Of a stretch of DNA of 64,000 bases, positions 23,558-36,068 are shown one piece after another. Below the pieces are notes generated by a model that saw nothing but the letters and a program-made list of their open reading frames with translations, was not told the origin of the DNA and searched no databases. The DNA comes from an uncultured Acidobacteriota bacterium (GTDB taxonomy: Bacteria > Acidobacteriota > Thermoanaerobaculia > Gp7-AA8). The stretch is from NCBI GenBank assembly GCA_963822445.1, contig CAWGHO010000002.1, positions 1,088,001-1,152,000 of the forward strand, in the 5' to 3' direction. Within the stretch, counting starts at the first letter, position 1. Every line of letters begins with the position of its first letter. The translations under genes and the position numbers were made by a program.

Positions 23558-25101
23558 CACCAGCAGCAAAAGTCGGAATCGTCATGCTGATCGCCCTCGC
23601 GGTGCTCGGCTACTTCGTCCTCAGGATCGAGGACATCAGCCTGAGCCGCTCGCGCACGACCCGCGAGATCAAAGCCGTCTTCGACGACGTGGCCGGCCTC
23701 GACGACGAATCAGCGGTCCGCATCGCCGGCGTGCGCAAGGGTCACGTGACCGACATCAAAGTCCGCCCCGACGGCAGCGCCGAAGTGACGATGACCGTCG
23801 ACGACGACGTGCCCCTCCACTCCGACGCCACCGCCCGCGTCGCCAACCTCGGCCTCCTCGGCGAGAAATACATCGAGCTCGAGCCGGGAACGGGCACGAA
23901 GCCCGTGCTGCCGCCGTCACAGACCGTGGTCATTCGCGGGTCGCAACCCGCGTCCTTCGACGACGTCACCTCGCAGGTCTCCGCGATCGCGGAAGATGTG
24001 AAGGCGATCACCGCGTCGCTCCGCGCCGTCGCCGGCGGCCCGCAAGGCCAGCAGCGTCTCGACGAGATCGTCGAAAACGTCCGCGGCATCACCGCGGAGG
24101 TGCGCCTGCTCATCGCCGCGAATCGCGGCAACGTCGACGCGACCATGGCCAACACCCGGGCCATCACCGAGCACCTGCGCACCGAGATTCCGCGGCTCGC
24201 GGCAACCCTCGATCGCGTTGCCAATCAGCTCGGCAGCCAGATCGGCGGAACGGTCGGCGAGAACCGCGAGGACATCCGCGTCGTCGTGGAAAACCTCCGC
24301 GGCCTTTCCTCCGACCTTCGCACGACCGCCGACAACCTCAACGAAGTCACCGGCCAGGTTCGCAGCGGCGAAGGCACGGTCGGCAAGCTGCTCTACAGCG
24401 ACGAAGCGCACACGAGGCTCACCAACGCGCTGTCGTCGGTGGAAGGCGGCGTGAAGTCACTGCAGGACACGCTCGGCCGCGTCGGCAAGATCCAGATGGA
24501 CCTGGGGATCAAGGCCGATTACTACGCCGGGCTCTCGCCGACCGAAGTCGGCGGAGTGGAAACGTCCGATGGTGCTGCGCGATCGGCGGTGGGCCTGCGG
24601 CTCGTTCCCGATCCGGCGAAGAACCGCTTCTACAACATCGAGCTGGCCGACGATCCGCGCGGCAGCAAGCGGGACAAGGTCCACGTCGAGACGCGCACCG
24701 ATCCGGCCACCGGACAGTCGCAGACGATCATCACCGAGACCACGAAGTACGATCGCGATTTCGTCATCTCCGCGCAGGCGGGATGGGTGCTCGACGATCT
24801 CGCCGTCCGCGTCGGCCTCTTCGATTCGACCGGCGGCGTCGGCGCCGACTACCAATGGAACGACCGCATCCGCGTGACCGGTGAGGCGTTCGACTTCGGC
24901 GGAAAGCGCGACGACCAGCCGCACCTGAGACTGTTCGGCGAATACGTCGTGCGGAAAGAGAAGCCGCACACGCCGCTGCTCTTCATCACCAGCGGCGTGG
25001 ACAACCCCCTGAACGACATGGCCGTGACCATCGGCGGCGGGATCCGCTGGCGCGACGAGGATCTGAAATATCTGCTGGGCAGCATCCCGACCGGCCGCTA
25101 G
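23554..25101 (+). CDS. MlaD/MCE protein with helical stalk and C-terminal beta-rich region
   Basis: TM, FDDVAGL...VRIAGV..G.V, GLLGEKYIEL.PG, GEGTVGKLL. Confidence 0.88.
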   Translation: MTPAAKVGIVMLIALAVLGYFVLRIEDISLSRSRTTREIKAVFDDVAGLDDESAVRIAGVRKGHVTDIKVRPDGSAEVTMTVDDDVPLHSDATARVANLGLLGEKYIELEPGTGTKPVLPPSQTVVIRGSQPASFDDVTSQVSAIAEDVKAITASLRAVAGGPQGQQRLDEIVENVRGITAEVRLLIAANRGNVDATMANTRAITEHLRTEIPRLAATLDRVANQLGSQIGGTVGENREDIRVVVENLRGLSSDLRTTADNLNEVTGQVRSGEGTVGKLLYSDEAHTRLTNALSSVEGGVKSLQDTLGRVGKIQMDLGIKADYYAGLSPTEVGGVETSDGAARSAVGLRLVPDPAKNRFYNIELADDPRGSKRDKVHVETRTDPATGQSQTIITETTKYDRDFVISAQAGWVLDDLAVRVGLFDSTGGVGADYQWNDRIRVTGEAFDFGGKRDDQPHLRLFGEYVVRKEKPHTPLLFITSGVDNPLNDMAVTIGGGIRWRDEDLKYLLGSIPTGR

Positions 25102-25121
25102 GCCGGCAAAAGGACATCACG

Positions 25122-26201
25122 ATGAACGCTGTCCTGCTCTTCGGCGGCCGTTCCGCCGAGCATGAAGTCTCGATCCTTTCCGCGCGATCGGTCGCCGCGG
25201 CCGCGCCTGCCGATCGCGTGACCATGACCCCGATCTGCATCGCCCGCGACGGCCGTTTTGTCGGACCGGAACGGAGCGCGCGCATCCTCGCCGGCGACGA
25301 AAAGAGCACCACCGGCGACAGCGGATTCTCGTTCGAAGAATGGGTCGCGAACGAGAAGACGGACATCGTCTTTCCGCTCATTCACGGCACCGGCGGCGAG
25401 GATGGATCGCTGCAGGGATACCTGGAAATGCTCGGCCTTCCCTACGTCGGCAGCGGCGTCACCGCCTCGGCCGTGGGCATGGACAAGGTGCACATGAAGC
25501 AGGCCTTCGCCGCGGCGAAACTGCCGATGGTCGATTACGTCCCGCTGCACGAGCACGACTGGCGGCACGAGCGGGAGCGGGTCACGCGCAAGATGATCAA
25601 CGCCCTGCGCCTCCCCTACTTCGTGAAGCCGGCCAACGGCGGCTCGTCGGTCGGCGTGACGAAGGTGAAGAACGACAACGACCTCGCCGCGGCCATCGAG
25701 CACGCGCTGCGATTCGACGAGAAGGTCCTCGTCGAGCGCGGCGTCGACGCCCGGGAGATCGAAGTGGCCGTCCTCGGCAACGACAAGCCGGAAGCATCGG
25801 TCGCCGGCGAGATCGTCGCGGGACGCGAGTTCTACGACTACGCCGACAAATACGTCGACGACAAGTCGCAACTGGTCATCCCCGCGAAACTGGCGAAGGA
25901 CAAGGCCGAGGAGTTCCGGCGGATGGCCATCGCCGCGTTCCGGGCCATCGGCGCGTCGGGATTCGCGCGCGTCGACTTCTTCCTCGAGCGCGGCACGAAC
26001 CGCCTCTACCTCAACGAGATCAACACCATCCCCGGCTTCACCAGCATCTCCATGTACCCGAAGCTTTGGGAAGCGACGGAGATCAAGTACCCGCGCCTGA
26101 TCGAGAGGCTTTTGCAACTCGGCCTCGAACGCTCGAAAGGGCGGGCGGCGCGAGCGGAAAGCACGATGAAGTGGTTTTTAGAGGTGAAGTCGATCACGTG
26201 A
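25122..26201 (+). CDS. ddl: D-alanine--D-alanine ligase
   Basis: GGRSAEHEVS, HG..GEDG, KP..GGSSVG, FYDY..KY, NEINTIPG. Confidence 0.96.
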   Translation: MNAVLLFGGRSAEHEVSILSARSVAAAAPADRVTMTPICIARDGRFVGPERSARILAGDEKSTTGDSGFSFEEWVANEKTDIVFPLIHGTGGEDGSLQGYLEMLGLPYVGSGVTASAVGMDKVHMKQAFAAAKLPMVDYVPLHEHDWRHERERVTRKMINALRLPYFVKPANGGSSVGVTKVKNDNDLAAAIEHALRFDEKVLVERGVDAREIEVAVLGNDKPEASVAGEIVAGREFYDYADKYVDDKSQLVIPAKLAKDKAEEFRRMAIAAFRAIGASGFARVDFFLERGTNRLYLNEINTIPGFTSISMYPKLWEATEIKYPRLIERLLQLGLERSKGRAARAESTMKWFLEVKSIT

Positions 26202-27853
26202 TCTGGCCGCTGCGGCTCGCTGTCGCCAAACTCCGTCCCTTTACCGTCGCGTCGATTCTGCGGACGGCCATCGTCGCCATGGTCTTCCTCGCCTTTCTCT
26301 TCGGCGACTTTGCTCTCTTCGCCAGGCTCTTCGAAGCGACCGCGGAAATCGAAACGGAGACGCCGTTCTTCGCCGTGGCCCTCCTGCGCAATCTCCTGGC
26401 GATGGTGTTTCTCGTGGCCACGGTGGTGCTGTTCTCTTCCTCGATGACCGTGGCCATCGGATCGTTCTTCACCGACCTCGACCTGGATGTGCATCACGCC
26501 GCACCGCGATCGAAACTGCGCATCGCGCTGGCGCGGTGGGCCAAGACCCTCTTTCAAAGCGCGACGATCGTCTTCCTCTTTCTGATCCCGCTGTTCATCG
26601 CCTTCGAGCGGCAGTATCCAAAGCCGTTCGAGTTCTACCCCGCGATCCTTCTGAACCTCGCGCTACTGCTCAGCATCCCAGTCAGCCTCTCGTCGACTGT
26701 GATCCTGCTGCTGGTGCGCTGGTTTCCGGTGCAGCGCGTTCATCAGATCGTCGCGTCGCTGGCCGTGCTGATCCTGACCATGGTCGTGGTCGCGTTTCGC
26801 ATGAGCCGTCCTGAGCGGTTCTTCACCGAGGTCACGACCGACGACGTTGCCAAGGTCCTGCAGTCGATCGAATTGCCGGCCATGAGCATCTACCCCGGCA
26901 CATCGCTGGCCACGGTGATGACCCGCGACGCTTCGTTCTGGCTCGCGCCGCGGATCGTCATCATCGCCGCGATCGCCTTCGCGCTGTTCGTGCTCGTCGC
27001 GAAGGCCTGGTACTTCAGCGCATTCGTCCGAGCGCGCGAGAGCATGGCTCCGGTGGCGATCGGCGCCGCGCCGGCGACGCGACTCCTCGATCGCCTCGTC
27101 TCGCGCGCCCATCCTCAATTGCGGGCGATGCTCTCGAAGGAAGTGCGAACGGTGACGCGCGACGTCGCGCAGTGGTCGCAGGTCTTCCTGACCGTGGCCC
27201 TGCTCTTCATCTACCTCTACAACATCCGCATGCTGCCCCTGGGCGGCGACGCCCGCGCGACGATCATCGCCTACGCCAACATCGGCATGGCCGGCTTCGT
27301 GATCGCCGCGATCTGCCTCCGCTTCGCCTACCCCTCGGTCTCATCGGAAGGGAAGGCGTTCTGGATCGTGCAGACCGCACCCGTGTCCTACCGCCACTTC
27401 CTCATCGTGAAGGTCCTCGTGTACGCGGCGCCACTTACTCTGTTTTCACTGCTGCTCACCGCATTCGCGAACGTGATCCTTGCCGCGAACGCGGTGGTCT
27501 GGACGTTCACGCTGATCGGCTCCGCGCTGCTCGCGGTGACGCTCGTCAGCCTCGGCGTGGGGATGGGAGCCTGGTCGCCGAACTTCAACGCCGAGAATCC
27601 GCTGCAGGTCGGCCTTTCCCTCGGCGGCTTCGCCTACATGGCCGTGTCGATGAGCTACGTCGCGGCGATGATGCTGCTCATGGCCCGTCCGGTGATGAAG
27701 TTCTTCGTCGAGCGCGTCCTCGGCGAGCGCGACGCCGGCGGCATCGCCACGGCGACCGCAATCGTGATTGCGCTCACGCTCTCCGCTGCCGTCGGGGTGA
27801 TACCTCTCTTCGCCGCCGAACGACGCCTGACCCACCTGAATGAAAACGATTAG
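26198..27853 (+). CDS. Polytopic membrane protein, putative ABC exporter permease
   Basis: GTGA overlap with ddl; many TM segments; KE....RD..QWSQ, RFAYPSVSSEG.AFW. Confidence 0.75.
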   Translation: MIWPLRLAVAKLRPFTVASILRTAIVAMVFLAFLFGDFALFARLFEATAEIETETPFFAVALLRNLLAMVFLVATVVLFSSSMTVAIGSFFTDLDLDVHHAAPRSKLRIALARWAKTLFQSATIVFLFLIPLFIAFERQYPKPFEFYPAILLNLALLLSIPVSLSSTVILLLVRWFPVQRVHQIVASLAVLILTMVVVAFRMSRPERFFTEVTTDDVAKVLQSIELPAMSIYPGTSLATVMTRDASFWLAPRIVIIAAIAFALFVLVAKAWYFSAFVRARESMAPVAIGAAPATRLLDRLVSRAHPQLRAMLSKEVRTVTRDVAQWSQVFLTVALLFIYLYNIRMLPLGGDARATIIAYANIGMAGFVIAAICLRFAYPSVSSEGKAFWIVQTAPVSYRHFLIVKVLVYAAPLTLFSLLLTAFANVILAANAVVWTFTLIGSALLAVTLVSLGVGMGAWSPNFNAENPLQVGLSLGGFAYMAVSMSYVAAMMLLMARPVMKFFVERVLGERDAGGIATATAIVIALTLSAAVGVIPLFAAERRLTHLNEND

Positions 27854-27892
27854 AATCGGGCGACTTCACAACATCGCACGCAAGGAGAACAG

Positions 27893-28354
27893 ATGAGCGA
27901 GATTCCTCCGCCCACCGTACCCCCAGCAACCCCGCCGCCCCCCGGCGGAGGCTCGTACACGCCTCCTCCACCTCCGCCCCTTGGCGGTGGCACCGGTCCC
28001 GGTGGTCCCGGTGGTCCGGTGAGCTCTGACCGATCGCTGATGATCGCGTTGTCGTACCTGGGCATCCTGGCCCTGATCCCCTACCTCACGAAGAAGAACG
28101 ATCCCGACCAGGAAGTGCGCTGGCACTCGAAGAACGGCATGGGCCTGTTCATCGTGGACATCGTCCTGTGGATCGCGTTCTTCGTGATCGGGATGGTCCT
28201 GCGCAACTCCGCGATCGGCTGCGGCATGGGCGTGGTGCAATGCGTGGTGTGGCTGGCCCTACTCGGCCTGCACATCTACTGTCTGATTCAGGCCATCAAC
28301 GGCAAGCGCGTTCGCATTCCGGTTGTCACTGATTTCGCAGAGAAGAGCCTTTAA
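27893..28354 (+). CDS. DUF4870-like 3-TM protein with Pro-rich N-terminus
   Basis: SD AAGGAG; ALSYLG, EVRWHS.NG, A.NG....IP. Confidence 0.75.
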   Translation: MSEIPPPTVPPATPPPPGGGSYTPPPPPPLGGGTGPGGPGGPVSSDRSLMIALSYLGILALIPYLTKKNDPDQEVRWHSKNGMGLFIVDIVLWIAFFVIGMVLRNSAIGCGMGVVQCVVWLALLGLHIYCLIQAINGKRVRIPVVTDFAEKSL

Positions 28355-28363
28355 GGAGAACGC

Positions 28364-28732
28364 ATGTCTGAAATGAATCCTCCGGGTTCCTACACGCCAC
28401 CGCCGCCCCCCACGCCTCCCACGCCGGGAGGCGGAGCCCCCGTCGGGCCGGGCGGCGGCGACCTCGTCTACCCGACCGCACCGCCGAAAGATCCGATCCT
28501 CGTCCTCGTCCTGAACCTGCTCCTGGCCGGCGGCGTCGGCTACATCATCATCGGCCAGAAGACGAAGGGCATCGTGGCGATCGTCGCGTACGTGATCCTG
28601 CTGTTCGTCACGTGCGGCGCCGGCAGCGGCCTCGTGGCCATCGTGGCCGCGATCGACGGCTACCTCCAGGCCCAGCAGCTCCAGCAGGGCAAGCCTGTTG
28701 GACAGTGGACCTGGTTCAACGATCACCGATAA
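28364..28732 (+). CDS. Small TM2-like membrane protein with Pro-rich N-terminus
   Basis: SD AAGGAG; PKDP....LNLL..GGVGY..IGQ..KG. Confidence 0.7.
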   Translation: MSEMNPPGSYTPPPPPTPPTPGGGAPVGPGGGDLVYPTAPPKDPILVLVLNLLLAGGVGYIIIGQKTKGIVAIVAYVILLFVTCGAGSGLVAIVAAIDGYLQAQQLQQGKPVGQWTWFNDHR

Positions 28733-28734
28733 AC

Positions 28735-28777
28735 CAGTAGGCAGTGGGCGGTAGGCAGTGGACCTACCGCCTACAGC
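28735..28777. repeat. Short inverted heptamer element (GCAGTAG family)
   Basis: CAGTAGGCAGTGGGCGGTAGGCAGTG, then CCTACCGCCTACAGC, between convergent stop codons. Confidence 0.75.
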
Positions 28778-29124
28778 ACGTTCCTCAAGATCCACCAGCC
28801 GATCACCACCACCACCGCCCCCCACCCGAACCACGGCTTCAGTACGAACGCGGGCTGACGTCCGCGCGCGAGGCTTGGCGCGGCGAAGACTCCGAAGGCG
28901 CCGAGGGCGAAGAGCAGGGGATTGAGGCGGAAGGCTTCGGCGAAACGGCCGTGCAGCGCGTGGTGTGACGCGCGCGTAAGACCGCAGCCCGGGCAATCGA
29001 GCCCGGTCAGCATCTTGAAGGTGCAGCGCGGGTAAAACGTGTGCTCGCCGGGCGGGTACGTGTAGAGCACCCACGCACCGGCGAGCACCGCAATCGCAAG
29101 CGCGCTAGCTGAAATTACCTTCAC
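28771..29124 (-). CDS. DUF2752 membrane protein
   Basis: C.FK.LTG.DCPGCG.TRA.H..LHG....AF..NPL; start uncertain. Confidence 0.9.
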   Translation of the reverse strand: MKVISASALAIAVLAGAWVLYTYPPGEHTFYPRCTFKMLTGLDCPGCGLTRASHHALHGRFAEAFRLNPLLFALGAFGVFAAPSLARGRQPAFVLKPWFGWGAVVVVIGWWILRNVL

Positions 29125-29536
29125 GGATGGCCTGAGCGATGGCCGCTCCCCAGACCGTCATCATGATGATCCAGACCAGCAGACCGGTCCCGAGTGCGAT
29201 CCAGGTCCACATCTTCGCTTTGCGCGACGACTCGAGCGCGCCGGCGCGGTCGCCCGCGGCGAGCTTCGAGTTCACCTGCGCGGCGAAGATGATCGCCACG
29301 ATGCCGAACGGCAGGCAGCAGCAGAACGTGACCAGGATCGACTGGATGAGGTAGTTCGGAATCGTCGGTCCGGTTGCCGCCGCGGAAGATGCTCCTCCGT
29401 ACGGGGCCGACGGCGGGGGCGGTGTGTACGACTGAGTCAAGGGCGGTGTTTCGGGTGCGGGACCGAGCGAGCGGCCGCAGTTGATGCAGATCGTGGCGTT
29501 GTCGAGGTTCGAGGTTCCGCAGTTCGGACAGTTCAC
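29105..29536 (-). CDS. Zinc-ribbon + CD225/dispanin protein
   Basis: CPNC..CINC; NYL..SIL.TFCCCLPFGIVAIIFA.QV.....GD..GA..SS.KAK. Confidence 0.9.
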   Translation of the reverse strand: MNCPNCGTSNLDNATICINCGRSLGPAPETPPLTQSYTPPPPSAPYGGASSAAATGPTIPNYLIQSILVTFCCCLPFGIVAIIFAAQVNSKLAAGDRAGALESSRKAKMWTWIALGTGLLVWIIMMTVWGAAIAQAIREGNFS

Positions 29537-29549
29537 GTCGTCTCCTTAC

Positions 29550-29873
29550 TTAATCGAGGAACGTCACAAGAGCACCGCCGGCGCCAAACGTCAACAGGCC
29601 GGTGATGAATGCGATGAAAGCCCAGGTGCGCGCGGTCTGCGCCGAGCTCTGCGCGCCGGCCACGTCGCCCGCGGCCAGTTTCGAGTTCACCTGCGCCGCA
29701 AAGATCAGCGAAACGATCCCCAGCGGCAGGCAGCAGCAGAGCGTCGTGAAGATCGCGAAGCCGAGGTGGTTCTGAATGGGCGGCGGTGCCGGAAAGTACG
29801 GAATTGCCCGTCCGCATGACGGACAAACGGTCGCTCCGGCCGCGTGCGCCGTGCCGCAGCTCGTGCAGTACAT
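29550..29873 (-). CDS. Zinc-ribbon + CD225/dispanin protein (paralog)
   Basis: CTSC..CPSC; LCCCLPLGIVS..FA.QV.....GDVAGA. Confidence 0.9.
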   Translation of the reverse strand: MYCTSCGTAHAAGATVCPSCGRAIPYFPAPPPIQNHLGFAIFTTLCCCLPLGIVSLIFAAQVNSKLAAGDVAGAQSSAQTARTWAFIAFITGLLTFGAGGALVTFLD

Positions 29874-30431
29874 CTACGGCCGAGCTCCTTCCGGATACTG
29901 CACGAACGAGCCGTTGGCGAAAACGATGTCGCGATCGAAGGAAACCGTGCCGTCATTCGAGTACTCGTCGAGCGACTCGTACTCGAACTCCTTGTCCTTC
30001 CCGGCGCTGACGATGCCGTAGCCCGCGCACGGCCTTTCCGCGTCCGGAATGCACTCGTACCGCATCGGATAGCCCCAGCCGTCATTCGTCGTGGGCAAGT
30101 CGAGCACGGCCAGACTCTCCGGATACGACCCTTTCGAAACGCGGTGCCGCTCGATCTCGTGCGAGATGGTGCGCATGTCGGCCATGGTGCGCTTCTGCTT
30201 CGCGCGCTGCATCGCTGTCACGAGATTGGGAATGGCAATCGCGGCGACGATGCCCATGGCCGGGATGGCGAGAAACGCCAGGATCATGGCCACGACAGCG
30301 ATGATCGCCGCGTTCGTGCCGCCGGTGCCGAGCTGCGGTTTCGGCGCCCCGTTCGCTGGATTGCCGCACGACGCGCAAGGTCTGTACGAGACCTCAGCGA
30401 CCTGATTACCGCAGTGCGCGCAGAACGCCAC
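29874..30431 (-). CDS. Zinc-ribbon-fused GspG/pseudopilin-like protein
   Basis: CAHC..CASC; GIVAAIAIPNL..A.QRAKQKRT.ADM; DGWG; SAGKD. Confidence 0.75.
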   Translation of the reverse strand: MAFCAHCGNQVAEVSYRPCASCGNPANGAPKPQLGTGGTNAAIIAVVAMILAFLAIPAMGIVAAIAIPNLVTAMQRAKQKRTMADMRTISHEIERHRVSKGSYPESLAVLDLPTTNDGWGYPMRYECIPDAERPCAGYGIVSAGKDKEFEYESLDEYSNDGTVSFDRDIVFANGSFVQYPEGARP

Positions 30432-30458
30432 GAACGGAGATTGTAGCTGGGTGACAGC

Positions 30459-31004
30459 TCACCACATCATGCCGAGCTGCAGCCGCGCCGCCTCGGACAT
30501 CATGCTGCGATCCCAAACGGGATCGAACACGACCTCGACATCGGCGTTCTTCACGCCGGGCAACGCTTCGATCTTCGACTTCACGTCCGTCGCCAGGACA
30601 GGTCCCATGCCGCAGCCAGGCGCGGTCAGCGTCATCTTGATCTTCACCTGTTTGCCGGCCTCGGTCTCCTCGAGCTCGCAGAGATAGACCAGGCCGAGGT
30701 CGACGATGTTCACGGGGATCTCGGGGTCGTAGCAGGTCTTGAGCGCGCCCCAGACCAGTTCTTCGAGCTTCTCCTGGGTCACCTCTTCCGGTTTCAGCTC
30801 GACGGCCTCGTTCGGCGTCTTGCCGATGGCCTCGACTTCCGGACCGGACACGCGAACCATGAGTCCGCGATCGGTGATCAGGGTGTAGGCGCCGCCGAGG
30901 GACTGCGTGATCGTGGCCTGGGCTCCCTTCGGAACCAGGACCTTCTCCCCGCTGGGGATCATGATCGCTTCGGCGTTGCGCTCGAACGTCACTTCTTCTC
31001 TCAT
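30459..31004 (-). CDS. sufT: Fe-S assembly protein SufT (DUF59)
   Basis: YDPEIPVNIVDLGL, MTLTAPGCGMG, W...MMSEAA. Confidence 0.9.
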   Translation of the reverse strand: MREEVTFERNAEAIMIPSGEKVLVPKGAQATITQSLGGAYTLITDRGLMVRVSGPEVEAIGKTPNEAVELKPEEVTQEKLEELVWGALKTCYDPEIPVNIVDLGLVYLCELEETEAGKQVKIKMTLTAPGCGMGPVLATDVKSKIEALPGVKNADVEVVFDPVWDRSMMSEAARLQLGMMW

Positions 31005-31453
31005 TCGGTGGTCACCTTTTCCTGCTTCCCCTCCAACGCAGTTCGTAGCGTATGCCACGCCAACGTTGCGCACTTCACGCGCGCGGGAAACTCACTCACC
31101 CCTGAAAACGCGGCCAGACGGCCCAGATCTGCCGCGCTGAGGCCGCTCTGATCGCCGGTGACGAGTTTGTGAAAGGTGTCGAAGAGGCGATCGGCCTCTT
31201 CCTTTGATTTCCCTTTGAGCGTCGAGCTCATCACGGACGCGGACGCTTTCGAGATCGCGCAGCCGCTACCGGTAAAGCTGACGTCGTCGATCGTTCCGCC
31301 GTCGTCGAGCTTGAGGTAGACCGTGTAGTGATCGCCACACAGCGGGTTGTAGCCCTCGACGTGCGACGTCGCGTCCGCCATCTCGTGATAGTTCCGCGGA
31401 TTCTTGTTGTGATCGAGGATGACCTGTTGGTAGAGCTCGCGTAAGTCCGACAT
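31001..31453 (-). CDS. sufU: SUF system NifU-family protein
   Basis: LYQQVILDH, NPLCGD, GCAIS.AS, RVKCATL.WH. Confidence 0.93.
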   Translation of the reverse strand: MSDLRELYQQVILDHNKNPRNYHEMADATSHVEGYNPLCGDHYTVYLKLDDGGTIDDVSFTGSGCAISKASASVMSSTLKGKSKEEADRLFDTFHKLVTGDQSGLSAADLGRLAAFSGVSEFPARVKCATLAWHTLRTALEGKQEKVTTE

Positions 31454-32697
31454 CACCCAAAAACCTCGATCACTTTCTGCAAACCCTCCACCAGCAGATC
31501 GGCCTCTTCCTTGGTGTTGTAGAGGCCGAACGAGGCGCGTCCCGTCGCGGGAACGTTGAAACGCAGCATCAGCGGCTGTGCGCAGTGATGTCCGGTGCGG
31601 ATGGCGATTCCTTCCTGGTCGAGGATGGTGCCGATGTCGTGCGGGTGAACGCTTTCGAGCACGAACGAGATCACCGCGGCCTTTTCGCGCGCGGTTCCGA
31701 TCAGACGCAGACCGGGAATCTCGAGGAGGCGCTTCGTCGCGTATTGCTCGAGCTCGTGCTCGTACGCGGCGACGTTCTCCAGCCCGATCGAGCCGATGTA
31801 ATCGAGCGCCGCGGCCAGTCCGACCACGCCTTCGATGTTCGGCGTGCCCGCTTCGAATTTGTAGGGCAGCGCGTTGTAGGTCGTCTTCTCGTACGACACC
31901 GACAGGATCATGTCGCCGCCGCCCTGCCACGGCGGCATCGCGTCGAGCAGCGCTTCGCGTCCGTACAGCACGCCGATGCCGGTCGGGCCGTACACCTTGT
32001 GTCCGGAGAACGCGTAGAAATCGCAGCCGATGTCCTGCACGTCGACGTGGGTGTGCGGCATGCCCTGCGCGCCGTCGATGAGGATCAGCGATCCGTTCGC
32101 GTGAGCCGCGGCAACCATCCGCTTGACGGGATTGATCGTGCCGAGGGCGTTGGAGGCGTGGCCTACCGCGACCAGTTTCACGCGCGGATTCAGCATCCGC
32201 TCGTACTCGTCGATCAGCAGCTCACCGGCGTCGTTGACGGGGATGATCCGCAGCGTGGCGTTCTTTTCGGCGCAGAGCATCTGCCAGGGAACGATGTTCG
32301 AGTGATGCTCGATGGCGGAGATGAGGATCTCGTCCCCTTCGCGCACATTCGCCCGGCCCCAGGCCTGAGCGACGAGATTGATCGACTCGGTCGTCCCGCG
32401 CGTGAAGACGATTTCCTTCTCGTCGTTCGCGTTGATGAACCGCCGCACGAACCCGCGCGCGTTCTCGTACTCCATCGTCGCCACCTCGGAGAGGTAGTGA
32501 ACGCCGCGATGAACGTTTGAGTTCTCTTCCGAGTAGTAGCGGACGATGCGGTCGATGACTGCCTGAGGCTTCTGTGTGGTGGCGGCGTTGTCGAGATAGA
32601 CCAGACGCTTGCCGCGCGCGGTGCGAGACAGGATCGGGAAATCGCGGCGGATGCGCTCGACGTCGTAAGTCAGGCGTGCTTCGGCCAGGGCGCTCAT
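31453..32697 (-). CDS. sufS: Cysteine desulfurase
   Basis: YLDNAATTQKP, FSGHK, RTGHHCA. Confidence 0.96.
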   Translation of the reverse strand: MSALAEARLTYDVERIRRDFPILSRTARGKRLVYLDNAATTQKPQAVIDRIVRYYSEENSNVHRGVHYLSEVATMEYENARGFVRRFINANDEKEIVFTRGTTESINLVAQAWGRANVREGDEILISAIEHHSNIVPWQMLCAEKNATLRIIPVNDAGELLIDEYERMLNPRVKLVAVGHASNALGTINPVKRMVAAAHANGSLILIDGAQGMPHTHVDVQDIGCDFYAFSGHKVYGPTGIGVLYGREALLDAMPPWQGGGDMILSVSYEKTTYNALPYKFEAGTPNIEGVVGLAAALDYIGSIGLENVAAYEHELEQYATKRLLEIPGLRLIGTAREKAAVISFVLESVHPHDIGTILDQEGIAIRTGHHCAQPLMLRFNVPATGRASFGLYNTKEEADLLVEGLQKVIEVFG

Positions 32698-33880
32698 TTC
32701 GTGGCTCTCCGTTCTGGCAACCGCTCCGGCAGCGTGCGGAACAAGGCGCGGCGGATCTGTTCGCGAACCGGCTCGATCTTCATCCGGTCGATGATCTGGC
32801 CCGCGAAGGCGAGGACGAGCAGATTGCGGGCCTCGTCTTCACTGATGCCGCGCGATTGCAGGTAGAACAGCTGCTCGGCGTCGATCTGTCCGATGGTCGA
32901 GCCGTGATTGCACTTCACGTCGTCGTTGTGAATCTCCAGCGTCGGTTTCGAGTCGACGATCGCCGTCTCGGACAGCAGCAGGTTGCGGTTCTCCTGTTTC
33001 GACACGGTCTTCTGCGCATCGGGCCGTACGATGATCCGTCCGTCGAAAACGCCGCGCGCGGTGTCGTCGAGGATGCCTTTGTAAAGCTCGTAGCTTTCGC
33101 AGTGCGGCTTGATGTGATCGATCACGGTGCGGTTGTCGAGATGCTGGCTTCCCGCTCCGACGAACAGACCATCCAGAACGATCGACGCACCTTCACCGGC
33201 GAGAGCAACATGCGTCTCGCTGCGCGCGAGTGCGCCGCCCACCATCACCGACCGCGAGGTCACACTGGCCGCGCGCTGCTGGTCGATGAAGACGTTGCCG
33301 ACGTGAAACGCGCTCTGCGACTCGCACTGGAGGCGGTAGTGATCGACGATCGCGTTCTCGCCGGCGATGATCTCCGTGACCGCGTTCGTGAAGTACGAGC
33401 CCGATCCGACATACGACTCGACGATCGTGACCTGGGCGTTATCGCCGACGACGATCACGTTCCGCGGATGCGACCAGATGCCGTCTCCTTGTCCAACGAA
33501 GAGGAGATGGATGAAGCCTTCCACGATCGCGTTCGCGGGAATCTCGATGCGCGCGCCGTCCTGCGCGTTCGCTGTATTGAGCGCGACCATGGCGTTGCGC
33601 TCCCAGTCGGCGATGCTGACGCGGTCCGGCGTTGCGAACGGCGATTCGCCGCTCTGCACGACAAAGCGCCCGTTGACGAACAGCAGCTCCAGCACGTTGC
33701 GACCGGCGAGCGTTGCCGTCGAATCGACGGCTTTCGGAGCGTCATCGATCCGCCAGTCGATCTTCTGCACCGGCGCGAGATTCGTGTAGCGCCACTCTTC
33801 GATCCGCGTGGTCGGCCAGCCGAGCTTTTCGAAGGTCTCGGCCGCGCGTTCGCGGAGGCTCGCAGGCATGGTCCCAACGG

Positions 33881-33884
<4 letters not shown>
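32694..33884 (-). CDS. sufD: Fe-S assembly protein SufD
   Basis: [26 protein letters not shown]. Confidence 0.93.

Positions 33885-36068
<2,184 letters not shown>

Follow-up and report, generated by a model that had tools for sequence, protein, structure and literature searches.

A recurrent CD225–DUF2752 gene pair within a cluster of small membrane-protein genes in an uncultured acidobacterium of the class Thermoanaerobaculia

The stretch of DNA analysed here, below called the window, comprises 64,000 nucleotides of contig CAWGHO010000002.1 (positions 1,088,001 to 1,152,000; assembly GCA_963822445.1) from an uncultured member of the Acidobacteriota, class Thermoanaerobaculia, which we take to be a soil bacterium. 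It contains a cluster of six small genes, named g1 to g6, and all six open reading frames (ORFs) were found where a first-pass annotation, made from the sequence alone, had placed them. Two of them lie on the plus strand and four, convergent to these, on the minus strand. The plus-strand unit consists of g1 (27893-28354; 153 aa), whose ORF and Pfam match indicate a proline-rich N-terminus and a DUF4870 membrane domain, and g2 (28364-28732; 122 aa), to which BLASTP and jackhmmer assign a proline-rich N-terminus and a divergent TM2-type two-helix domain. The minus-strand unit starts with g6 (29874-30431; 185 aa), for which a marginal T2SSG match and a structure model indicate a Zn ribbon, a transmembrane (TM) helix and a pilin-fold periplasmic domain. 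It is followed by two tandem copies of a gene for a Zn-ribbon protein with a CD225/dispanin domain, as recognised by Pfam, namely g5 (29550-29873; 107 aa) and g4 (29105-29536; 143 aa), the latter with a SYTPPPP linker between ribbon and domain. The last gene of the unit is g3 (28771-29124; 117 aa), a DUF2752 protein by Pfam and alignment, with three predicted TM helices and the motif C-x9-CPxCG-x2-R. The four genes are tightly packed, in that no gap separates g6 from g5, only 13 nt lie between g5 and g4, and the end of g4 overlaps the start of g3 by 20 nt. The CD225–DUF2752 pair made up of g4 and g3 is probably translationally coupled, and its two products may bind each other. None of the six proteins was named by NCBIfam, and a promoter and terminator scan of positions 25000-34000 gave nothing useful.

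The CD225 (PF04505) matches of g4 and g5 reach 92.3 and 84.7 bits against a cut-off of 27.1, and both proteins match Zn_Ribbon_1 as well (32.2 and 26.2 bits, respectively). The DUF2752 (PF10825) match of g3 is 69 bits against 27, and that of g1 to DUF4870 (PF09685) is barely above the cut-off (28.2 versus 25 bits). The HMM check thus upheld the first-pass calls of DUF4870, DUF2752 and two Zn-ribbon CD225 proteins. In the translations of both CD225 proteins we could read the CCCLP and GxxxG motifs that had been reported for them, the latter being GDRAG in g4 and GDVAG in g5. In the numbering of g4, a first hydrophobic segment (HD1, residues 62-84) is followed by a basic loop (85-110; mean 3.85 K/R) and a second hydrophobic segment (HD2, 111-133), which is the two-segment layout of CD225. 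In a cross-phylum alignment of 40 CD225 sequences, C73 is invariant and C74, G95 and D96 are each at least 90% conserved, and the second G of GxxxG falls below 90%, so that the motif as a whole is not conserved across phyla. The same alignment gives SYTPPPP as the consensus of the linker in the Thermoanaerobaculia CD225b proteins. The N-terminal heads vary among lineages, being a Zn ribbon in Acidobacteriota and GYF_2 in Verrucomicrobiota and Bacteroidota, while some loci have none and two (L096 and L131) have a TIR_2 head on CD225. The fusions to Zn ribbon, GYF and TIR imply that the N-terminal head is cytosolic. Moreover, the first hydrophobic segment of the CD225 partners carries a Cys cluster, and CC, CxC or CCC in a TM segment occurs also in the DUF4190, GYF-only, Yip1, DUF4870 and TM2 proteins encoded next to DUF2752 elsewhere. 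The ORFs upstream of DUF2752 in L062, L066 and L069 encode GYF_2 proteins with a C-terminal two-helix domain bearing the motif PC..CC(C).GLP.GIW. In Pfam the domain falls outside both CD225 and DUF4190, and it may represent a further unnamed partner family of DUF2752.

In an alignment of 47 DUF2752 sequences, C34, G41, C44, P45, C47, G48 and R51 are invariant, and there is a near-invariant D. The AlphaFold2 model of g3 (pLDDT 89.3) has helices at residues 2-22, 69-86 and 97-116; the 46 residues that link the first helix to the second contain the Cys motif, and the CPxC lies at a helix N-terminus. No solved relative of this model was found, as Foldseek against the PDB, with a threshold of E<=0.001, got no further than E 2.5, the highest Z of VIA-align among 48,161 chains was 3.9, and a search of the ESM Atlas returned DUF2752 clusters only. 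The family itself is large. Among 1.84 billion cluster representatives, 27,102 match its profile at E<=1e-3, and 12,911 still do so at E<=1e-10; the best 150 of these matches are 111-277 aa long, and longer fused forms were sought and not found, which is weak evidence. A kinship of DUF2752 with the Cys-rich N-terminal domain of prepilin peptidases was also considered, and Pfam gave no match in support of it.

The assignment of g2 to the TM2 proteins needs qualification. It has no Pfam match even at E<=10, TM2 (PF05154) included. On the other hand, it aligns by BLASTP over 59 aa (42% identity, pairwise E 3e-6) with the Zn-ribbon-TM2 protein of L128, which is a Pfam TM2 protein with 46.6 bits, and a jackhmmer search started from that protein pulls in all g2 homologues, with the caveat that iterative searches on TM segments can drift. 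Since the alignment and jackhmmer link g2 to a confirmed TM2 protein and Pfam does not recognise it, the earlier label of TM2-like is kept in the sense that g2 appears to be a divergent relative of the family.

For g6, the first-pass name of Zn-pseudopilin is probably right in fold, agrees with the metal ribbon and does not extend to the features of a prepilin. The T2SSG match is marginal (21.4 versus 21 bits), and the score against the GspG equivalog TIGR01710 is below its cut-off (29.5 versus 88.85). In the alignment of 20 homologues, the four ribbon cysteines C4, C7, C19 and C22 are invariant, as is a segment G-I-x-A-A-I-A-I-P-N. In the AlphaFold2 model (pLDDT 86), a helix of 60 residues leads into a small beta domain, and the top Foldseek rows are all pseudopilins or pilins (GspG/EpsG), among them 4lw9_A (E 1.3e-2, prob 0.99) and 3g20_A (TMt 0.58), with none at E<=1e-3. 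Canonical class III prepilins have a short leader, G at -1, F or M at +1 and E at +5. When G60...P68 N69 of g6 were set against the pilin helix, these positions were occupied by V46, V47 and L51, and a Zn ribbon of about 40 residues preceded them. The absence of G-1, F+1 and E+5 makes cleavage by a prepilin peptidase and assembly into fibres unlikely. Judging from sequence and model, g6 is predicted to be a membrane-anchored pilin-fold protein with a cytosolic Zn ribbon and not a cleavable prepilin. It thus resembles GspG and the type IV pilins in its long N-terminal helix with AAIAIPN and its small beta domain, and differs from them in that a cytosolic Zn ribbon takes the place of the short leader. 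Upstream of DUF2752 in L115, a verrucomicrobial gene (L115:2508-3284, +) encodes GYF_2 and DUF4190 domains fused to a pilin-like domain at the C-terminus. A GYF-TM2 gene lies downstream of that DUF2752 gene, and the fusion looks like several components of the window cluster joined in one protein.

In the genome to which the window belongs (6.0 Mb in 3 contigs), CD225 is matched twice and DUF2752 once, each time at this locus. Among 24 other genomes of the genus, a set that includes the unpublished genome G002, 20 have DUF2752 and the same 20 have CD225; G007, G010, G015 and G019 have neither. The window proteins were compared by tblastn with 17 loci of the genus (L004-L019 and L022). DUF2752 and an adjoining g4-type CD225 gene are present in all 17, a second CD225 gene of the g5 type in 12 and g6 in 14, the last being found in more distant Thermoanaerobaculia loci as well. 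Furthermore, g1 and g2 are convergent to the minus-strand unit in 15 of the 17 loci; L022 ends at a contig edge, and L015 has no g1 or g2 homologue beside the unit. Because the only CD225 and DUF2752 genes of the genome sit together here and the order is conserved in relatives, the arrangement is more than chance.

The pairing extends well beyond the genus. Counted from the CD225 side, a match above the cut-off was scored as paired when a DUF2752 gene followed it on the same strand within about 1 kb. In Acidobacteriota, CD225 is present in 13 of 301 genomes, and DUF2752 follows 14 of 16 CD225 matches in 12 of these 13 genomes, the exceptions being G088:C61 and G108:C9. In Bacteroidota, 5 of 151 genomes (one of them the seed genome) have CD225, and all 7 matches are followed by DUF2752. 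The corresponding figures for Actinomycetota are 12 of 201 genomes and 10 of 13 matches. The three phylum samples together give 31 of 36, in line with the earlier remark that CD225-DUF2752 neighbourhoods occur in bacteria. From the DUF2752 side, a scan of one genome per species yielded at least 595 relatives, and the 80 loci closest to that of the window were kept; they represent Acidobacteriota, Verrucomicrobiota, Bacteroidota, Actinomycetota, Gemmatimonadota and Kiritimatiellia. When these 80 were searched with local HMMs independently of reading frame, 61 had a CD225 (50) or DUF4190-like domain (12) on the same strand that ended at most 1.2 kb upstream of DUF2752. In 77 loci Pfam was also run on the immediate upstream ORF, which proved to be CD225 in 39, GYF_2 plus DUF4190 in 8 and GYF_2 alone in 3. 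Tandem copies of CD225 or DUF4190 are likewise found in other phyla (L078 and L098).

Considering these data, we assume that the locus is a chromosomal module of small inner-membrane proteins, whose core is CD225 followed by DUF2752 and in which DUF2752 is a common partner of hairpin proteins. Of the readings considered it is the likeliest, and we hold it tentatively, at somewhat less than an even chance. DUF2752 would act as a membrane partner shared by many hairpin proteins, either as a co-subunit or as an assembly factor. The hairpin proteins, all with a Cys cluster in the first hydrophobic segment, would be the two CD225 proteins here and DUF4190, TM2, DUF4870 or Yip1 proteins elsewhere, and the three cysteines of DUF2752 with their CPxCG might form a metal or thiol site that engages the di-Cys of the partner. 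The hairpin proteins may form oligomers that change or organise the membrane around them, and their exchangeable cytosolic heads (Zn ribbon and SYTPPPP here, GYF_2 or TIR elsewhere) could tie the assembly to cytosolic partners. In Thermoanaerobaculia, the pilin-fold g6 anchored with its Zn ribbon would add a periplasmic arm, and the convergent g1 (DUF4870) and g2 (TM2) would belong to the same guild. The role would then be a constitutive one in membrane or envelope organisation and not that of a mobile defence system.

Several points weigh against this reading. DUF2752 is present in 182 of the 301 Acidobacteriota genomes (a tally that includes the unpublished genome G087) versus 13 of 301 for CD225, and among 16 genomes of the same class outside the genus, 13 have DUF2752 and none has CD225. 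As DUF2752 is so much commoner, it cannot depend on CD225. Its neighbours in CD225-free genomes are mixed and include Yip1 proteins, an OPT transporter and unrelated enzymes. In the CD225-free relatives within the class, a Yip1-domain gene is found in L027, L030 and L031, an OPT transporter gene in L029, L034 and L038, a g1-type DUF4870 gene in L035 and the order DUF4870-DUF4190-DUF2752-YidD in L037, with unrelated genes elsewhere. The idea of one partner shared by the hairpin proteins thus generalises from only part of the neighbourhoods. In addition, 19 of the 80 closest loci have no CD225 or DUF4190-like gene upstream, and the 80 loci were chosen by similarity to a CD225-linked query, so that they are biased towards pairing, and the local CD225 HMM was partly built from the same loci. 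Counts of K and R are ambiguous on the topology of DUF2752 and the side of its Cys loop, and likewise on its side relative to the partner's di-Cys. While the gene linkage, the domain architecture, the conserved residues and the shared motif are direct observations, we infer that CD225 and DUF2752 bind physically, that the cysteines serve as a metal or thiol site and that the membrane is affected. A complex prediction for residues 55-143 of g4 with DUF2752 gave a score of 0.01 (mark 0.32); it was run without controls and is evidence neither way. In a quick tree of 118 DUF2752 sequences, the partner types cluster (25 changes versus 48 in shuffles, with 0 of 200 as low), and the copies linked to Yip1, OPT and DUF4870 lie in separate deep clades, to which little weight is given because the clustering is confounded by kinship.

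Two genes beside DUF2752 in other loci are worth recording. In L037, of the same class as the window, DUF4870-DUF4190-DUF2752 is immediately followed by a gene for the membrane protein insertion efficiency factor YidD (L037:1320-1661, +). In the f43 operon of L128, a gene for a secreted or anchored protein resembling SAM methyltransferases (L128:1844-2635, -) overlaps the 3' end of the DUF2752 gene.

Whether the two convergent units belong together is a separate matter. The first-pass annotation had treated all six genes as one membrane cluster. The most specific link is the SYTPPPP motif, which is found in the N-terminal linker of each of g1, g2 and g4. A degenerate coding pattern for it (WSNTAYACNCCNCCNCCNCCN) has three matches on both strands of the 6.0 Mb genome, at 27953..27972 (+) in g1, 28388..28407 (+) in g2 and 29412..29431 (-) in g4, and the reversed control has none. 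The motif is partly conserved among g2 homologues, and in 31 genomes of the genus the pattern has 56 matches versus 1 in the control. At least 40 of the 56 are on the contig of the mapped locus, 12 are in genomes in which the locus is unmapped and 4 are off the contig; the total of 56 includes four matches from the unpublished genome G331. Moreover, an operon with the order CD225, Zn-ribbon-TM2, DUF2752 is present in L128 and L129 of another acidobacterial family, TM2 genes with GYF, Zn-ribbon or proline-rich heads adjoin DUF2752 in L069, L073, L080, L115 and L124, some of them in other phyla, and g1-type DUF4870 genes abut DUF2752 without CD225 in L035 and L037, which represent two other families. 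The locus-specific motif, the TM2 gene within CD225-DUF2752 operons and the DUF4870 gene beside DUF2752 suggest that the convergent units are related. For g6, the pilin-like fusion upstream of DUF2752 in L115 offers a further link.

The same data must be weighed against an alternative in which only the CD225-DUF2752 pair, with g5 and g6, is the functional unit, and g1 and g2 are part of a unit with ddl and the ABC_tran_2 membrane gene and are neighbours of the pair by descent. The start of g1 lies 39 nt after the ABC_tran_2 gene, which stays with g1 and g2 in every locus of the genus that shows them. In G007 (97% complete), sufT is immediately followed by g2-g1-ABC_tran_2-ddl, and g3 to g6 are cleanly missing as a block; together with L015, whose minus-strand unit stands without g1 and g2, this indicates that the two units are separable and the module dispensable. 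Insertions of 0.7-2.2 kb part g2 from g3 in L008, L010, L017 and L019, and of the 80 cross-phylum loci none but the acidobacterial ones yielded homologues of g1, g2 and g6, both of which argue against a strict six-gene unit. The shared poly-Pro motif itself could reflect local recombination or a translational effect of the EF-P type instead of a common binding partner. Against the alternative stand the exclusive occurrence of the SYTPPPP coding pattern in g1, g2 and g4 of the genome and its near restriction to the locus in the genus, the TM2 genes in or beside CD225/DUF2752 units of other families and phyla, and the DUF4870 genes adjoining DUF2752 in two other families. On balance, a unit limited to g3-g6 seems to us unlikely, and the claim of a single six-gene module stands only in part. 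The finding is best restated as a widespread cassette of CD225 (or DUF4190 or TM2) with DUF2752, to which the Thermoanaerobaculia add pilin-fold, DUF4870 and TM2 members and a locus-specific poly-Pro motif.

The poly-Pro linkers here and the GYF_2 heads elsewhere suggest a theme of GYF-proline recognition, which we offer as a lead only. The genome of the window has only two GYF_2 matches. One is an SPFH/Band_7_1 protein with a C-terminal GYF_2 domain (L125:1447-2766, -; G000:C3 at about 1.45 Mb), whose gene adjoins one for a Zn-ribbon membrane protein (L125:288-1373, -) and which is a possible reader of the SYTPPPP linkers. The other is a TIR_2-GYF_2-TM-DUF1036 protein (L126:859-2286, +; G000:C3 at about 1.44 Mb). 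Its TIR head closely resembles that of the TIR-CD225 protein in L131, from another genus of the same family.

The conserved cysteines also allow a reading in which DUF2752 is an enzyme that acts on the membrane-embedded cysteines of its partner, either as an S-acyl transferase or as a CPxC thiol-disulfide oxidoreductase. The invariant R next to the CPxC, the near-invariant D, the three invariant cysteines and the position of the CPxC at a helix N-terminus in the model are in keeping with catalysis, and on the side of the substrate so are the invariant C73 and well-conserved C74 of CD225 and the Cys clusters of the DUF4190, TM2, Yip1 and DUF4870 partners. In a report on mycobacterial IFITM homologues, the di-Cys of one of them is described as S-palmitoylated in human cells (PMC4488726). 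However, the structure searches above disclosed no likeness to an acyltransferase or oxidoreductase fold, there is no invariant His, the protein has only 117 aa, the K/R counts leave the membrane side ambiguous, and CPxCG knuckles are well known as structural Zn sites too. We therefore regard enzymatic activity as highly doubtful. A bolder version, to which we likewise give only a small chance, makes DUF2752 the dedicated Cys-chemistry partner of the dispanins. It would S-acylate the di-Cys of the hairpin or bridge to it via a shared metal site. IFITM3 needs palmitoylation, and this dependence would then go back to a two-gene bacterial module, with the CD225-TM2 co-operon as an ancestral partnership. 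If so, the pairing of CD225 with TM2 would unite two families that both touch gamma-secretase/Notch biology in animals, and the module could also oppose phage entry.

An envelope defence role had been proposed for the cluster at the outset, with IFITM-like proteins stiffening or reorganising the membrane so that phage genome entry or pore-forming toxins are blocked. The IFITM proteins are the CD225 family, influenza virus was restricted in human cells that expressed mycobacterial IFITM homologues (PMC4488726), and the occurrence of CD225 is patchy, as the above figures of 13 of 301, 5 of 151 and 12 of 201 genomes demonstrate. In L096, a Bacteroidetes metagenome-assembled genome (MAG), a TIR_2-CD225 fusion (L096:2669-3484, +) is followed by DUF2752 and faces a convergent SLATT_1/DUF4231 gene (L096:3862-4596, -), and a second such fusion occurs without DUF2752 in L131 (L131:2261-3046, +). 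These two fusions and the one SLATT neighbour are the sole hints of a conflict system, and they leave defence a small chance. Against it, the six proteins and their ABC_tran_2 neighbour matched 0 families of PADLOC-DB 2.0 at E<=0.1, and g2 to g6 had no match in PHROGs. The flanks are core genes in every lineage viewed (suf and ddl here; groEL, PBP1a, trpD and deoC elsewhere) and not defence islands, and the synteny within the genus is stable and vertical. Searched by tblastn with g3, 72,556 plasmids contained 2 with a match and 50,697 phage records a single one. When 2.9 million viral contigs were scanned for patterns, DUF2752 turned up at one marginal locus and CD225 nowhere. The poor conservation of GxxxG across phyla adds to this. 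A block to phage DNA entry or toxins thus found no positive support; a defence role is not supported at this locus, and we consider it improbable. In comparison with known anti-phage systems, the likeness goes no further than small membrane proteins here and, now and then in relatives, a TIR fusion or a nearby SLATT gene, and the cluster differs from them in matching no PADLOC-DB 2.0 model and in its core, not island-like, context.

IFITM proteins are much-studied antiviral factors and are thought to be of bacterial origin. Like the vertebrate members, g4 and g5 have a CD225 domain with two hydrophobic segments around a basic loop and an implied cytosolic head, with two or three cysteines in the first segment and GD..G in the loop. 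Unlike them, the bacterial genes are operon-coupled to DUF2752, a Zn ribbon and, in g4, a poly-Pro linker replace the IFITM N-terminus, and the second G of GxxxG is not conserved across bacterial phyla. The closest studied relatives are the mycobacterial IFITM homologues of Melvin et al. 2015, which are likewise bacterial CD225 proteins with a di-Cys and were studied solely in human cells (PMC4488726). The authors state there that the function in bacteria is not yet studied, and a term search of the same text found neither "operon" nor "neighbor". Beyond these homologues, our literature search found no bacterial CD225 member with experiments. The string "DUF2752" occurs in none of about 8.4 million full texts, a collection that excludes subscription journals and supplementary files, so that a prior description is possible; "DUF4190" occurs once, in an unrelated title, and a search for IFITM together with phage retrieved only analogies in reference lists. 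As for TM2 proteins, g2 resembles them in its alignment to a confirmed bacterial member and in the occurrence of TM2 genes with Zn-ribbon, GYF or proline-rich heads in or beside CD225/DUF2752 units, and departs from them in failing the Pfam model. In animals, Notch signalling involves the TM2D1-3/Almondex genes, a family whose function "remains elusive" (PMC8714088), and IFITM3 has been reported as a regulator of gamma-secretase (PMC7661164). A link between the bacterial CD225-TM2 co-operon and these animal pathways is speculation.

In the samples of three phyla, nearly all bacterial CD225 genes are coupled to DUF2752, and this gives a testable handle, with one conserved partner, three invariant cysteines, a conserved di-Cys in CD225, exchangeable heads and culturable carrier genera. 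Among the latter, Sphingobacterium, Dysgonomonas and Mucilaginibacter have the CD225-DUF2752 pair, whereas Corynebacterium glutamicum, used as a control genome, has DUF2752 without CD225. If the pair is a functional complex, DUF2752 would gain a role, the function of the bacterial dispanins would be revealed, and the mechanisms of animal IFITM and TM2D proteins may be informed as well. The cluster thus offers a way to learn the original job of IFITM-type proteins.

As to the surroundings of the cluster, sufT-sufU-sufS-sufD lie upstream of g6, and ddl and the ABC_tran_2 membrane gene upstream of g1. On the minus strand, the stop of sufT and the start of g6 are separated by 27 nt (30432-30458), so that transcription of the suf operon could run on into g6. 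The proximity suggested a connection with Fe-S assembly, which was set aside, because 1.3-2.3 kb are inserted between sufT and g6 in L005 and L012 and because the pair has different flanks elsewhere. On the other side, the ABC_tran_2 (PF16949) gene between ddl and g1 (26231-27853, +) encodes a polytopic membrane protein of 540 aa.

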